Shown: positions 51,317 to 64,000 of the stretch, one piece after another | Layout of the letters: each line of letters begins with the position of its first letter | How positions within the stretch are numbered: the stretch's first letter is position 1 | NCBI GenBank assembly: GCA_044229845.1 | Contig: JBGASG010000006.1 | Coordinates: forward strand, 96,001 to 160,000 | Origin: Candidatus Obscuribacteraceae bacterium | GTDB lineage: Bacteria > Cyanobacteriota > Vampirovibrionia > Obscuribacterales > Obscuribacteraceae | Reading direction: 5' to 3' | DNA length: 64,000 nucleotides | Notes under the pieces: model-generated | Database searches by the model: none | Told to the model about the DNA's origin: nothing | Seen by the model: the letters and a program-made list of their open reading frames with translations, nothing else | Position numbers and translations under genes: made by a program

Positions 51317-53065
51317 TCAGGCAGCCGCCATAATCAGAGGGTTGTTGTTCATGTCCCGTCTGGCGTTGCGAAACTCGATGTTCTTGTTTTGTTCTGCAAC
51401 TGGAATGCGTGGCAGGTCTACTCCTTGCGATGACTGGAGCGGCTGATCTGGGGACTGCTGGCGCTGTTTTTCGCGCAGTTCGAAGCCCCGTTTCGTCAGT
51501 TCGTAGTCTCTCGGGTTCTGCCCAAGAGTCTTGCTGGCTGCCCATTCCATACGGCTCTTGCCGCTACCGATTTTATACAGTCCGACCGCGGCGTTGGCTT
51601 CATCGAATTCATAGCCCATCTCATTGGCATACATGCCCCAGGCGGCGTTGCCCCATTCCTCGTATTGGCGTCCGACCTGCTTGTCGTCCCAGTCGCCGTC
51701 ATCTTTAGTGCGCTGGTACATGTTGATATTTCCGGCATTGTCGCGGCATTCTTTTAAGCGAGACTGAAGGAGCGATTCATAGTTCTCCGGCACTTCTTGA
51801 ATCAGCGGTCGATACTCGATGGGGTTGTTGCCGGCCGAAGTGAAATTCTGCGCGGTGCCTTTTTGAGCCAGATCGACTTGCTTGCCATTGGGAGCGGTGA
51901 ATACAGTCTTGTCATCGATGTTCACTTGATTGCCGTCTTTGTTATACCAGATCGGTACATCCGCTCTAATTAGCATGCCATCGCCATCGAGCAGATCTTC
52001 GCGATGATAAACCGTGGTCTCCCCGTCTTTGGAGTAGGTGACTTGTGTGGGATGTCCTTCGTAGTCGAATTCAACTTTGGTGACCGAACCATCCGGACGA
52101 GTGGTGGTCATCGTCGGAGGCGTGAAAGCGGTGCCTTCCGAGTTTTGAATTGTGGTGCCGTCGGTCAGAGTGAGTGTACGGTTTTTAGCATCCTTCGCGT
52201 TGGCGACGGTGCCATCTGGGAAGTAGCGCAGCGAGGCTTGATCGGTGCCTTTGAGATTGGTGTTGTACACGACCGCGCAACCATCCGAGTCGGCTGTGAC
52301 CTTTCCTTGCCAGGACTCATCGACGTTGCCGGCGGCATCTTTTTTGGTCCATTTGCCGGTCTCACGATCCATTTCGTACGTGTTGTACTGCGAGTCTTGG
52401 AAGTAAACACATTCCGGCGGGCGCGGTTGTCCATCTTTGTGTTCGACAACTGCGAATTTCACGGTCTGCAATGGTGCCAGACATGGTCCGTTTTCTGTTT
52501 CGTCCTTTCTCAATACTGTGACTACCCTGGTGCCGTCAGACTCGCGCGAAGTGATGGTCTGCGCATTAGGATAGATTGTTTTCTCGGTGCCGTCAGGACG
52601 AATCTGTTTAGTAACTTGGTCTGTCGCAGAATTGGGATCAGCTGCGTCCTTCGGAATGTTGTATATGATGTTGAGGTTGCCGTCGTTGTCCAGTTTTACG
52701 TCCTGGACGGGCTCGCCATCAGGAGCGAGTAGACTGTGGCGATACCACTGACCATCACGCCTTATGTATGTTTCGCCGAGTTTGTCGGTGTACTTGACCG
52801 GCTGTCCGTCGTTGTCCAGCTCCAGTCCTTTGACTTCGCGTTTCTCGCTGTTGCCGTCGACCAGCTCGAAAGGACGTTCTCTATCAATTTCGTTTGTAAC
52901 TGTTTTCTGTGCTGCTTTCAGTGATTGATCCGCCGGCTTGATGCCTTGCTTCTGAGCATCCTGAACTTCGTTGGAAGAGTTTTGAGAGCTGTTGTCTCGC
53001 ACGGATTCTTCGGCAGATTTCGAATCCTTCGGTTTATCAACGTCTTGCGTCTTAGTAAGGCTCAT
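51317..53065 (-). CDS. Beta-repeat protein with C-terminal variant Ntox44-like polymorphic toxin domain
   Basis: Repeated PDG/DG turns; WDDKQVGRQYEEWGNAAWG...G.....AVG...LGQNPRDYELTKRG; likely start MSLTK 53065 after GGAG (ORF open from 53134). Confidence 0.7.
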   Translation of the reverse strand: MSLTKTQDVDKPKDSKSAEESVRDNSSQNSSNEVQDAQKQGIKPADQSLKAAQKTVTNEIDRERPFELVDGNSEKREVKGLELDNDGQPVKYTDKLGETYIRRDGQWYRHSLLAPDGEPVQDVKLDNDGNLNIIYNIPKDAADPNSATDQVTKQIRPDGTEKTIYPNAQTITSRESDGTRVVTVLRKDETENGPCLAPLQTVKFAVVEHKDGQPRPPECVYFQDSQYNTYEMDRETGKWTKKDAAGNVDESWQGKVTADSDGCAVVYNTNLKGTDQASLRYFPDGTVANAKDAKNRTLTLTDGTTIQNSEGTAFTPPTMTTTRPDGSVTKVEFDYEGHPTQVTYSKDGETTVYHREDLLDGDGMLIRADVPIWYNKDGNQVNIDDKTVFTAPNGKQVDLAQKGTAQNFTSAGNNPIEYRPLIQEVPENYESLLQSRLKECRDNAGNINMYQRTKDDGDWDDKQVGRQYEEWGNAAWGMYANEMGYEFDEANAAVGLYKIGSGKSRMEWAASKTLGQNPRDYELTKRGFELREKQRQQSPDQPLQSSQGVDLPRIPVAEQNKNIEFRNARRDMNNNPLIMAAA

Positions 53066-53289
53066 TAGTAAGGTGCTCCAGGAAGAAGGAGAAGCGCAGT
53101 CAGCGAGCATTTGGGTGGCGGGTTCGTACACCATAGAGCCGATTTGTTAACGAGTTGTTTAATGCAAAACCGCGCGCCGGAGCAACCACCCCAAAACTCC
53201 GGCAGCAGCAGGTCCACAGGTGCCGACACAGACGGGTTCTACGGGCTTTTTTCAAGCCCGCGGCAGCAGAACCACGCCGCCCAAATCTT

Positions 53290-60130: not shown

Positions 60131-61810
60131 ATGTGCAACATTTATCCGCGTTACATGACGCGCGCGAGACGAGGCGCAAGCCGCTCGAAGGCCGAGATGC
60201 AATTCTACGATGCATGCCGGACGCAGCTCGATAACCGCTGGACTGTCATTTATGATGTTCGGTGGCACGCCCCGGAAATAGGCAAAGCCGGACACGGACA
60301 AGCGGATTTCATCGTGGCACACGAAGATCTTGGAGCGCTTGTTTTGGAGGTGAAGGGCGCCGGTCTTGAACGAGTCCCGCACACACGAGAGTGGCTGCAA
60401 GTGAACCACGAGGGGAAGTATCCCATAGATCCGATCAAGCAGGTCCAAAACAGCATGCACGCATTACTTGCAGGCTTGCGAAGAAGGAACAATTTGCCTG
60501 ATGGGCACTTAGGTCTATTCCACGCGGTGGCTTTTCCGCAAGCGAGAACGGCAGGCTCAGAATGGACAATTGAAATGCCGTCGGAGCTGACAATCGGACG
60601 CGAACACATGCCCAACCTTGAAGCGCGCTTACGCGAGATTTTTGCCTATCATCACCGTCGGTCGAATAACGAAACATACTCGGTTGGTGCGCGCCTCATC
60701 GAAGAAATTCTTGCGATAACAAACAGCCGGGTCGAATATGTCTATTCGCTTTCCGCCAAAGTCGACGAAGACGAACAGGAACTGATCGAGCTGACGACCG
60801 AACAAATCCGCCTTCTGGACTGTTTCCGGAAGAACAAGCGTGTATTGATCGATGGTTGCGCCGGATCCGGCAAAACACTGTTGGCAGTTGAGAAAGCTCG
60901 CCAACTCGCCAAAAGCGGCAAGCGGACCCTGCTTACCTGTTTCAATGCACCACTGGAGCGTTTTCTCCGAGAAGCGACGGCGGGAATTGAGAATCTAGAC
61001 GTCGTTCGCTTTCATCAATTGTGCAGGCACCAAGACGATCACTTCAACCCCATTCTGCCGGTACTCGGTGCGAGCATATCGCGCGACGATGACCCCAATT
61101 TCGTGTTAGTTTTGATGGAGGCAGCGAAGAAGAATCCCGAAATAAAGTATGATGCAATCATCATAGATGAGGCGCAAGACTTCAGGTCCGAGTGGGGAAT
61201 CGCCCTTGAGGCTTGTCTGCGTAATGATGAATCGCTGTTGTATGTTTTCAAAGACAGCGGGCAGAATTTGTATGGCATCAGGCACCAGTACGCGCCAGTG
61301 GACATGTGCCATTTCAGTTTGCAGAGAAACATTCGCAATTCACAAGCCATCGGGCAGTACGTCCGGCGTCATTATCTAGGCGCCGACGATGTTCCGATGG
61401 TCTTGGCGGGACCGGCAGGCCGCGATGTCGCAGTACATGTCTACCAAAGCGAGCAGCAATTGATCGCGGAGGTATCGGAGGTCATCACGAAATGGATAGA
61501 CGAAGAGCACGTTTCACCGAAAGACATTGTTGTCTTGACGCCTCGTAAAATTGACCGCAGCGCCCTGTTCAACTTGAAGCTGCCTAATGCATTCGTCAAC
61601 ACTCGCACAACTACCGAGCGCGGCATTTTGATTTCAAGCATAAATAGGTTCAAGGGAATGGAAAGCAATTTCGTGGTCGTTGTTGAGCTGGATAACGAAT
61701 TCTCCCAGCGTCCTGAGCACCACCAGTCAACCCACTGCTACGCGGCCTTCTCCCGCGCCAAGCACCATCTCGTCGTTTTCTCCAGTCCTGAGTGCGCATC
61801 ATTGGTGTAG
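60131..61810 (+). CDS. NERD nuclease fused to an SF1 (UvrD-like) helicase
   Basis: E...GQADFIV...LVLEVKG; GCAGSGKT; IIDEAQD; RNIRNS; SSINRFKGMES; YAAFSRAKHHL. Confidence 0.88.
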   Translation: MCNIYPRYMTRARRGASRSKAEMQFYDACRTQLDNRWTVIYDVRWHAPEIGKAGHGQADFIVAHEDLGALVLEVKGAGLERVPHTREWLQVNHEGKYPIDPIKQVQNSMHALLAGLRRRNNLPDGHLGLFHAVAFPQARTAGSEWTIEMPSELTIGREHMPNLEARLREIFAYHHRRSNNETYSVGARLIEEILAITNSRVEYVYSLSAKVDEDEQELIELTTEQIRLLDCFRKNKRVLIDGCAGSGKTLLAVEKARQLAKSGKRTLLTCFNAPLERFLREATAGIENLDVVRFHQLCRHQDDHFNPILPVLGASISRDDDPNFVLVLMEAAKKNPEIKYDAIIIDEAQDFRSEWGIALEACLRNDESLLYVFKDSGQNLYGIRHQYAPVDMCHFSLQRNIRNSQAIGQYVRRHYLGADDVPMVLAGPAGRDVAVHVYQSEQQLIAEVSEVITKWIDEEHVSPKDIVVLTPRKIDRSALFNLKLPNAFVNTRTTTERGILISSINRFKGMESNFVVVVELDNEFSQRPEHHQSTHCYAAFSRAKHHLVVFSSPECASLV

Positions 61811-61926: not shown

Positions 61927-62207
61927 GTGGAAGTCATCAACGAAACCGAAGTGCACTCATTTGCGCAGAAACATTCAAGTGCGCGGAAACCGCTGGGCAA
62001 TTGGATTGACGTAACAAAAACTGCTGATTGGAAGTCTTTTCCCGACGTTCGAGAAACCTTCAGGAGCACGGACTACGTTAAAGAACAAGTGGTTTTCGAT
62101 ATAGGCGGAAACAACTACAGACTCACTAGTTCGATTGACTATGAAACTCAGCATGTCTACGTCTTAGAAGTGCGACGCATGCAGAATATGATCGGTGGAA
62201 GGCGTGA
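61927..62207 (+). pseudogene. higB: HigB-type mRNA interferase toxin with a 1-bp frameshift near the C-terminus
   Basis: VVFDIGGNNYRL; conserved tail THAEYDRWKA* is in a shifted frame from 62175, and its TGA overlaps the antitoxin GTG. Confidence 0.8.
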
Positions 62208-62617
62208 GCACAGCAAGGGTCGACAAAGCATACATGGCGCTAATCAGAGAGTTTCCTCTGATTCCGATACGCGACAAGTCTGAATTCGAGCGAGCCATAG
62301 CATTGATGAAGCGGCTAGCCTACCGCCGAAGCAGCTTAAGTAGCGGCGAGTCCGATTATCTAACCGTGCTTGGTAATTTGATAGTGCAGTACGAAAAACG
62401 GCTGCCCAAGCTGGCGGAAGCAATGACACCACGCGAAGCCCTGGCTTATCTCATGGAATCCAATGGGCTCTCTCAAACAGATCTCGTCGAATACGTCGGG
62501 TACAAATCGAATCTCTCCGCGTTTCTTGGTGGTCATCGAGGGCTGAGCAAGCGAGCAGCGTGCCGACTTGCAGAGTATTTCAAAGTGTCGCCGGCGCTGT
62601 TCTTGCCGAGAGAATGA
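62204..62617 (+). CDS. higA: HigA-type HTH antitoxin
   Basis: LIPIRD..EFERA...YLTVLGNLIVQYE...LAYLMESNGLSQTDL...LSAFLGGHRGLS...LAEYFKVSPALF. Confidence 0.9.
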   Translation: MSTARVDKAYMALIREFPLIPIRDKSEFERAIALMKRLAYRRSSLSSGESDYLTVLGNLIVQYEKRLPKLAEAMTPREALAYLMESNGLSQTDLVEYVGYKSNLSAFLGGHRGLSKRAACRLAEYFKVSPALFLPRE

Positions 62618-62736: not shown

Positions 62737-63732
62737 ATGCGAAAAAAAGCTCTACTCGCAATTGCTTTCGCAAGCGGTTTGCTTAATCCGCAGCTGCCCG
62801 CCTTAGCTGAGGACACCAAGCCCGAGTCAAGCGAATCTGTAGTGCAGCAAATTACAGAAAGTGCGCAAATGTCACCCGAAATGCGAGCGTACTATCTACT
62901 CTTAATTGCAAATTCCTCTCTCACTGAAACACCGGCTGAAGTCGAAGAGAGATACAAGTTTGTAATCAGCAACAAAGGCAACAGCACCTGGCCTTTCAGA
63001 AAACGGCGCGCCTGGGAAGGTATCCTAGTCTCTTGGGCTAACAGGTTTACATCAGAGGCTAAGTCGCATAACACTGCAAATGGCAAGTCCGGGTCACATT
63101 CGATTGCATCCGCGAATCGCGCACTTGCGAATGCAGCAATCCAGAATGCAATAACGGAAGTGGACAAGATTACCGAGCCGTTCACCAAGTTGAACTTGTA
63201 CTACATTGCATCACGGCTCTGTCAAAAGGTTGGAGATGCCGACGGAATAAAGAAGTGCAACCGCGTTATCGAAGATGCTCTCAAATCATGCGAGGGGAGC
63301 TCACCTGCTAGCGAAGCTCAAGTCAAGGCTGCTGCTTCCATTCTGGATGCGATGGCTTTTGCTTATGTGCCGATTGAGGGATCCGATGGAGATTATGTTT
63401 CGGAGAGAACCCAGCAACAATCATCCCCATTAGCAGAACAGTATTCAGACATAGACTTTAAGAAAGCCGAAAGACTCAAACTTCGCGCCGCCGCCATGGC
63501 AGACCGATTGGGTGCAGAGACGCACACGAGGCGAAAGGTGCACCGAGATTTGGTGCTCTGGTACATGGCACTTGGCAGAACGCAGCAAGCAGAGAAAGAG
63601 AAGGAAATTCTATTCAAATTGGTTGGCTTCAAAGACGACAAAGTTTTGTATCCTCAACATGAAGGATGCGGGATGCTTGTCTGGTGGCGTCAGGAACAAA
63701 GGGGCGCAACGTTTTTATGTGGAATGGGCTAG
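62737..63732 (+). CDS. Secreted helical protein (331 aa) ending in CGMG; putative MNIO substrate
   Basis: Signal peptide MRKKALLAIAFASGLLNPQLPALA; C-terminus HEGCGMLVWWRQEQRGATFLCGMG*. Confidence 0.8.
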   Translation: MRKKALLAIAFASGLLNPQLPALAEDTKPESSESVVQQITESAQMSPEMRAYYLLLIANSSLTETPAEVEERYKFVISNKGNSTWPFRKRRAWEGILVSWANRFTSEAKSHNTANGKSGSHSIASANRALANAAIQNAITEVDKITEPFTKLNLYYIASRLCQKVGDADGIKKCNRVIEDALKSCEGSSPASEAQVKAAASILDAMAFAYVPIEGSDGDYVSERTQQQSSPLAEQYSDIDFKKAERLKLRAAAMADRLGAETHTRRKVHRDLVLWYMALGRTQQAEKEKEILFKLVGFKDDKVLYPQHEGCGMLVWWRQEQRGATFLCGMG

Positions 63733-63784
63733 ATTGCGCGGATGAATTTGTCGACTGCCAAACACCCCAGAGATTTCCTGAAAC

Positions 63785-64000
63785 ATGCGTAAACCAAAGC
63801 TTGGACTCTCTCTAATGCCATCGGAGGACTTTCGCCAAGCGTCTGCTGATCTCTTTGAGAAGGGTCTCGTTAAAGCCGTAGAGTGGTCTTTCGACGTCCC
63901 CTGGAACGGCGTCGTGACGGACCAATGGTGCTATGACATAGTCGACCAATTTAGTCGATTTGGCGCGCTGACTGGGCATGGAGTGAGTCTTTCTCCACTT
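63785..64000 (+). CDS. DUF692 / multinuclear non-heme iron oxidative enzyme (MNIO), ChrH-like; partial, continues past right edge
   Basis: Not in the ORF track. Manual translation: MRKPKLGLSLMPSEDFRQASADLFEKGLVKAVEWSFDVPWNGVVTDQWCYDIVDQFSRFGALTGHGVSLSPL; HGVxLS is the DUF692 N-terminal motif. Confidence 0.8.
   Translation, partial: MRKPKLGLSLMPSEDFRQASADLFEKGLVKAVEWSFDVPWNGVVTDQWCYDIVDQFSRFGALTGHGVSLSPL

Follow-up and report, generated by a model that had tools for sequence, protein, structure and literature searches.

The window (the whole stretch of DNA analysed, 64,000 nucleotides of the Candidatus Obscuribacteraceae assembly G000) ends inside a short gene unit that encodes a candidate precursor protein (A), an MNIO enzyme (H) and a small detached enzyme domain (Hc); the enzyme gene runs past the window end and was followed onward in the same contig, C3 (locus L001). 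The features are as follows.

62737..63732, forward strand: precursor protein A, 331 aa, 36.8 kDa, all-helical TPR-like scaffold; MelA family, long-spacer clade.
62737..62808, forward strand: predicted Sec/SPI signal peptide, residues 1-24, from inspection and conservation.
63667..63669, forward strand: Cys311, by hhalign the counterpart of the first (ring-closing) Cys of CPxCGxG.
63670..63717, forward strand: 16-residue spacer, a conserved G-x3-W-W followed by a variable 10-residue segment, delimited by conservation among tails.
63718..63732, forward strand: terminal CGMG and stop codon; Cys328 is the predicted MNIO oxidation site, by analogy with the chemistry in PMC13733907.
63785..64000, forward strand: first 72 codons of H, a 291-aa ChrH-subfamily MNIO (MelH type) by profile matches and motifs; whole gene at G000:C3 159785-160660 (L001 3785-4660).
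G000:C3 160653-160859 (L001 4653-4859), forward strand, wholly beyond the window: Hc, the 68-aa detached C-terminal helical domain of ChrH (MelHc type), by homology to a fused relative.

The preliminary description of this DNA had reported a 331-aa protein with a signal-peptide-like start and a CGMG end, separated by 52 bp (63733-63784) from an open reading frame carrying LGLSLM, EWSFD and HGVSLS, and these coordinates and features were confirmed. The signal peptide of A was recognized by inspection and conservation (MRKK, a hydrophobic core, and A-L-A at residues 22-24); a Tat-like motif occurred in none of the 96 rows scored, out of 143, in the alignment of relatives, and no lipobox Cys follows the signal peptide in A, the first Cys being residue 162, so that the lipoprotein feature of the DAG-RiPPs is absent. 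Further Cys residues occupy positions 174, 185, 311 and 328; the last two, 17 residues apart, lie in the C-terminus, which reads HEGCGMLVWWRQEQRGATFLCGMG before the stop codon and thus ends in CGMG without the CPxCGxG motif of the ChrA, DybA and MelA1 precursors. Protein A matched nothing in Pfam or NCBIfam, including NF050124 and NF050125, which match a CPACGMG homologue weakly. Two AlphaFold2 models predict a helical TPR-like body (mean pLDDT 86-88) in which the Cys311-WW segment is well predicted, and final 10 residues without regular structure (pLDDT 64 and 74); a Foldseek search of the PDB with the scaffold model returned weak TPR-type rows only, nothing at E<=0.001.

The downstream gene had been proposed from its motifs to encode a ChrH-like DUF692/MNIO enzyme, and both parts of this proposal were borne out: H matches PF05114 with 96 bits (curated cut-off 25), and its best NCBIfam match is NF050165 (MNIO_ChrH) with 316 bits over profile positions 1-285 of 363, a class assignment at subfamily level, as neither H nor its fused relative (335 bits) reaches the ChrH equivalog cut-off of 600 bits. 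Hc, whose reading frame overlaps the MNIO stop by 8 nt, has no NCBIfam match of its own; it shares 59% identity with the C-terminal portion of the fused relative, which covers positions 1-361 of 363 in NF050165, and is therefore identified as the detached ChrH domain. With ChrH as closest profile and a C-terminal helical domain, here as a separate gene, H falls within the ChrH subfamily. A ChrI-like or RRE partner had been anticipated; the partner is the detached domain instead, and the reading frames that follow Hc encode an AbiE-like pair and an Mrr-type nuclease, with no ChrI/RRE among them. Reading on beyond the window, neither a ChrI-size nor a short CxxCGMG reading frame was found downstream of Hc, and apart from the large exported protein no candidate substrate came to light, as the preliminary description had surmised.

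Eleven active-site positions inspected in H (H65, E101, H102, E147, D179, H181, N182, H210, D230, H232, and E260) are intact and are conserved in 28/28 MNIOs of the clade discussed below; E101, E147, H181, N182 and E260 we take to be iron ligands. H65, H102, D179 and H210 share their numbering with DybH ligands named in PMC13733907, and D230 and H232 were equated by motif with D228 and H230 of DybH, the Asp and His of its Fe3 site. A sequence search for a solved ChrH-type structure yielded two distant MNIOs only; a complex prediction of H, Hc and precursor residues 228-330, for which controls were not folded, scored 0.00 and carries no weight either way. A promoter and terminator scan stayed at chance level.

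The preliminary description regarded the arrangement as an undescribed system, a view that is superseded by the published mel cluster of Candidatus Melainabacteria (PMC13056109, published 2026), in which the tail of a full-size secreted protein is modified by this type of enzyme. According to the main text of that paper, MelA1, a 34-kDa secreted TPR-like protein ending in CPACGMG, forms a dimer and is changed by -4 Da in the presence of MelH plus MelHc, which MelH by itself does not achieve; ChrH can do without ChrI, the function of the product is called unknown, and CPxCGxG is said to be conserved across the whole subfamily (PMC13056109). The Obscuribacteraceae unit shares with the mel cluster a secreted TPR-like precursor of 30-40 kDa that ends in CGMG (here 36.8 kDa, with the signal peptide assigned by inspection), encoded upstream of a ChrH-subfamily MNIO that is split from its C-terminal domain, the latter being a small gene, and the absence of ChrI; it differs, judged by the published tail motif, in that MelA1 has CPACGMG (Cys spacing 3) whereas A has C-G-x3-WW-x10-CGMG (spacing 17). 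Since the unit would work like the mel system and yet lacks CPxCGxG, it is best described as a variant of that system; new are the two putatively reactive Cys residues 17 residues apart, not 3, in an architecture already known as the mel type. At two other loci of the family (L047 and L049), the CPACGMG precursors have a LysC tail peptide whose mass equals the one printed for MelA1 (1388.62). This assigns MelA1 to the same scaffold family; the MNIOs at these loci are 72-74% identical to H, and judging from peptide mass rather than from Mel sequences, the tested mel system probably belongs to the same clade as H.

Other characterized relatives are more remote in architecture. ChrA/ChrH (chryseobasin) and DybA/DybH (DAG-RiPPs; PMC13056109, main text) share the enzyme subfamily and the terminal CGMG, but their substrates are a short peptide or lipopeptide with CPxC and their C-terminal domain is fused, unlike the lipobox-free precursor and the split enzyme here. 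Bufferin, oxazolin and TIGR04222-linked MNIOs belong to the same superfamily, and secreted or large substrates occur among them (PMC12452194, in the parts consulted); they represent another subfamily (65-80 bits for H, against 316 for ChrH), with DUF2063-type partners and internal Cys motifs. Searches of the open literature on this system showed no paper on a long-spacer substrate, and "MelA2" does not occur in the main texts of PMC13056109 and PMC12636315; the name MelA1 implies further precursors, and Fig. S19 in the supplement of PMC13056109 may show one.

Long-tail precursors (A1) and short-spaced precursors (A2) are homologous over 309 alignment columns (hhalign; probability 100, E 1.9e-40), and in this alignment Cys311 pairs with the first Cys of CPxCG; therefore, the two-residue spacer appears to have grown to 16 residues, and on the simplest reading the long tail arose by insertion into the spacer. 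Natural Cys spacings of 3, 4, 6, 9, 12, 13, 15-21, 23, 27 and 29 residues were observed. In a precursor tree calculated without the tail (FastTree, midpoint root, no clade test), the 54 long-tail precursors, a set defined by spacing, form one clade (support 100) that is sister to forms with spacing 4 and 6 (support 98), with the CxxC forms outside. Cys311 is present in 54/54 long-tail precursors and in 184 of 187 WW-type tails, a set defined without reference to this residue. The Cys pair 17 residues apart that the preliminary description had pointed out is thus real and conserved, whereas its "two CGM triads" are a coincidence of one sequence: because the Met of the first CGM recurs in only 2 of the 54 long-tail precursors, what is conserved is C-G-x3-W-W rather than another CGM triad. 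Conservation of the terminal motif, also queried at the outset, is nearly complete, as 42 of 43 sequence homologues (one of them the window's own protein) end in CGxG and the remaining one has a different, probably frameshifted end; among the best 150 of 239 matches in a search of representatives, 137 end in CGxG, 126 of these with spacing 15-21 and 78 with exactly 17.

Several loci show other states of this gene family. Beside an intact enzyme at L046 (7878-8814, reverse strand), a long-tail precursor is split over two frames by a frameshift or an assembly error. An array of shorter scaffold relatives (~200-240 aa) at L114 (G292:C169) carries a different long tail without WW and with a Cys spacing of ~18-21, possibly an independent spacer expansion; its 2.8-kb contig carries no MNIO. 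Other ChrH-like enzymes of the family (L065-L097) are associated with CxxCGxG precursors of ~70 to 540 aa, some of which are encoded ~3 kb away or on the opposite strand.

Enzyme and long tail have closely overlapping distributions. At E<=1e-30, matches to H occur in 64 of the 401 class genomes, every one of them in the window's own family, and the source labels of homologues are Obscuribacterales or Cyanobacteria MAGs. Of 69 matches, 28 are 65-100% identical to H and constitute the single clade (support 100 in a quick tree) into which H fell when the suggested MNIO phylogeny was made; the clade sits on a long branch. Mapping stretches of up to 20 kb around all 28 clade members and 33 of the 41 other matches, long tails were found at 25/28 clade loci vs. 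0/33 other ChrH-like loci. Twenty clade loci, from 10 genera, have long tails only, five are mixed and three have short spacing only; all eight with short spacing belong to one genus. The clade loci carry tandem arrays of one to six precursors, and among reading frames of at least 120 aa only precursor and MNIO occur in 28/28 loci, the next cluster in 9; a conserved accessory gene (protease, transporter, methyltransferase) was not found across the 28 loci. With a profile of long-tail proteins, strong matches (E<=1e-50) were obtained in 27 of the 104 family genomes, and 25 of these 27 possess the enzyme of the clade; nine precursor copies without a ChrH-like MNIO within ~4 kb keep the whole motif, all of them in genomes that possess the enzyme. 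A metagenome scan added 13 loci, some redundant, nine with the enzyme on the same stretch. The expectation that many CGMG-tailed proteins would occur in the genome did not hold for G000: two of 78,322 six-frame reading frames of at least 20 aa end in CGMG, namely A and a 28-aa frame without upstream CxxC, and a full scan of reading frames in this assembly (88% complete) revealed no credible CxxCG[M/R/L]G-stop match. The assembly holds one such substrate; its relatives carry arrays of up to six, and distant copies as well.

Four indirect lines of sequence evidence suggest that the long tail is a substrate. First, dN/dS of the MNIOs amounts to 0.054-0.093 in the 16 closest pairs out of 190 drawn from long-only loci; purifying selection acts on the enzyme at places flanked by long tails only. 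Second, nine of the 20 long-only genomes, six of them at least 90% complete, contain no CxxCG[M/R/L]G-stop anywhere; ten contain such a match elsewhere, which could be a substrate in trans, and one further genome has only a Ser variant, the search having been confined to M, R and L. Third, a second Cys accompanies every intact end among the 187 WW-type tails; each of the three that lack Cys311 has one placed 2-3 residues upstream of the last Cys (compared to 3 of the 184 others), probably through two independent events. Fourth, in a genome where a deletion joins the MNIO start to the Hc end and collapses both (G302; L107 6005-7130), the precursor copy retains 37 of the 40 conserved sites and loses exactly C311, C328 and M330; this is a single event, and the tail also differs broadly from its closest relative. 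It is accordingly improbable, and the least probable of the readings considered, that the long-tail proteins are no longer substrates and that C311-C328 is an ordinary periplasmic disulfide, with the enzyme kept for CxxCGxG proteins elsewhere. Two conserved Cys residues in an exported protein would suit such a disulfide, and the trans matches in 10 of the 20 long-only genomes, in a set of incomplete assemblies, could supply the other substrates; yet CGxG at the exact C-terminus of 137 of the best 150 representatives, the nine genomes devoid of a CxxC-type match, and the loss of both Cys where the enzyme is deleted speak against it. Full-length long-tail genes, moreover, are found in 25/28 family genomes with the enzyme clade vs. 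2/76 without it (a count in which related genomes are not independent and the two genes are linked), and both exceptions are damaged: the copy in G104 is truncated, and G302 has the deletion through H and Hc.

For the chemistry, the characterized homologs provide a template. DybH still cyclises CPAACGMG and modifies a heptapeptide motif on GFP (PMC12636315, preprint version); the second Cys is oxidised first and ring closure by the first Cys comes last, a step that an outside thiol can also perform (PMC13733907, in the parts consulted). From this analogy and the sequence evidence above we infer, with a probability of roughly 0.57, that Cys328 is oxidised by H and Hc and that Cys311 closes a ring of ~18 residues in cis before predicted Sec export. 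H and Hc would form the active enzyme, as shown for MelH/MelHc; Cys328 would be converted via a thioaldehyde to a hydantoin and an electrophilic, probably episulfide, intermediate, as shown or proposed for DybH; attack by the Cys311 thiol would be the last step, giving a change of -4 Da and a large macrocycle that carries a free thiohemiaminal; finally, the signal peptide would export the product, and the TPR-like scaffold would display the cyclised loop. Against a ring in cis stands its size, since the largest ring tested in the papers compared has one extra residue, and the two conserved Cys fit a disulfide equally well; further, a distant Cys may lose the race, because the DybH intermediate is caught by glutathione in E. 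coli when the first Cys is missing.

The latter observation (DybA C44A; PMC13733907), together with the view of its authors that the intermediate leaves the active site, makes it conceivable, at clearly lower probability than the cis ring, that the hydantoin forms at CGMG and the intermediate is captured by another thiol: Cys311 of a partner subunit, a small-molecule thiol or another protein, or else that Cys311 forms a disulfide with the new thiol after export. MelA1 is a dimer (PMC13056109), and in the models Cys311 belongs to a well-predicted segment, the CGMG end to a loose one, which would also agree with capture from elsewhere; however, Cys311 occupies the position of the ring-closing Cys, the spacing is sharply peaked (17 in 78 of the 137 CGxG-ending proteins among the best 150 of 239), and the tails without Cys311 regain a near Cys, which a small-molecule trap would not require. 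Only slightly ahead of an ordinary disulfide, and likewise unlikely, is the alternative that this enzyme clade performs a different chemistry, for example by stopping at a thioaldehyde or formylglycine or by producing a metal-binding two-thiol site. DybH Fe3-site mutants do stop at the aldehyde (PMC13733907, as far as consulted), and the clade has 11 typical columns in addition to its long branch, but the Fe3-site equivalents D230 and H232 are kept in 28/28 members, and clade enzymes also adjoin the CPACGMG precursors with the tail-peptide mass printed for MelA1.

If Cys311 closes the ring in cis, the segment so enclosed is largely free in sequence: after the invariant WW, ten positions vary. 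Special hypervariability is not supported, as loop entropy (3.32 bits) does not exceed that of another surface loop (3.33 bits); in pairs at core identity 0.7-0.8, divergence of the loop (0.23) is only somewhat greater than that of other loops (0.34, 0.55). Among 14 chosen pairs, three have no amino-acid change in the loop; in one, distant scaffolds bear a near-identical loop (loop pS 0, scaffold pS 0.64), and in others the scaffolds are close and the loop is replaced (scaffold pS 0.22, loop pS 0.93). These patterns suggest that loops are maintained and exchanged by recombination; positive selection is not implied. Signs of tail exchange between paralogues were seen at L054 and L057 (final 90 nt of the gene that precedes the MNIO), and at L063 and L064. 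A diversity-generating retroelement target, which would show adenine-specific variation of a 3' variable repeat, was considered and is not supported, as loops in the 14 chosen pairs are either identical or differ at all bases including synonymous ones, and no accessory gene is common to the loci. Since its length is constrained and its sequence differs between paralogues and is kept between orthologues, the loop probably sets binding specificity.

A match between loop length and a supposed Sec-channel size limit of ~18 residues was not used as evidence, as this figure was not found in the literature searched; a review confirms that cysteine-looped proOmpA is translocated (PMC6028853, in the part consulted).

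In its widest and more tentative form, which we consider possible and hold with less confidence than the cis ring itself, the interpretation would be that a ChrH-type clade staples a freely variable 18-residue loop onto arrays of secreted helical scaffolds, and that these loops, kept in orthologues and swapped by recombination, amount to an encoded macrocycle repertoire in non-photosynthetic relatives of cyanobacteria and to a tag-dependent enzyme for large peptide rings. The published rule for the subfamily couples a CPxCGxG substrate to a small ring; the same clade is here tied mostly to 15-19 residues between the Cys, with more than 180 distinct natural tails. If the ring closes, nature would have supplied in these tails a test of whether control over the final thiol attack is loose, as recently proposed, along with a way to build large macrocycles on proteins; the sequence-variable loop offers a handle on what these products do, and the present genome, with one substrate, one enzyme and one helper, is a clean test case.

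In G000 the mel-type unit sits among defence-like genes (TA pairs, NERD, Mrr). Directly upstream of A are a HigB-like toxin (PF09907) and an HTH antitoxin (61927-62617, forward strand), preceded by a 559-aa protein that combines a NERD nuclease with a superfamily-1 helicase (60131-61810, forward strand); beyond the window, a weak AbiEi/AbiEii-like pair, below Pfam cut-offs, is followed by an Mrr_cat protein (L001 5352-8354, forward strand). Further on (L001 8795-14319), a protein of 1083 aa whose start is WGR-like was recognized by eye, as were three TadE/TadG-like reading frames; also by eye, a 605-aa reading frame with YD-like repeats and a distinct C-terminal region (51317-53134, reverse strand) is polymorphic-toxin-like. 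Three further MNIO genes of the assembly (C12:6878-7660, C1:909694-910488, and C14:67959-68738) have as neighbors a secreted protein in which EGSCKG is repeated, a small Cys-containing protein that is also secreted, and a membrane protein with Gly/Cys repeats at its end; judged by eye, these MNIOs are oxazolin-, bufferin- and TIGR04222-like.
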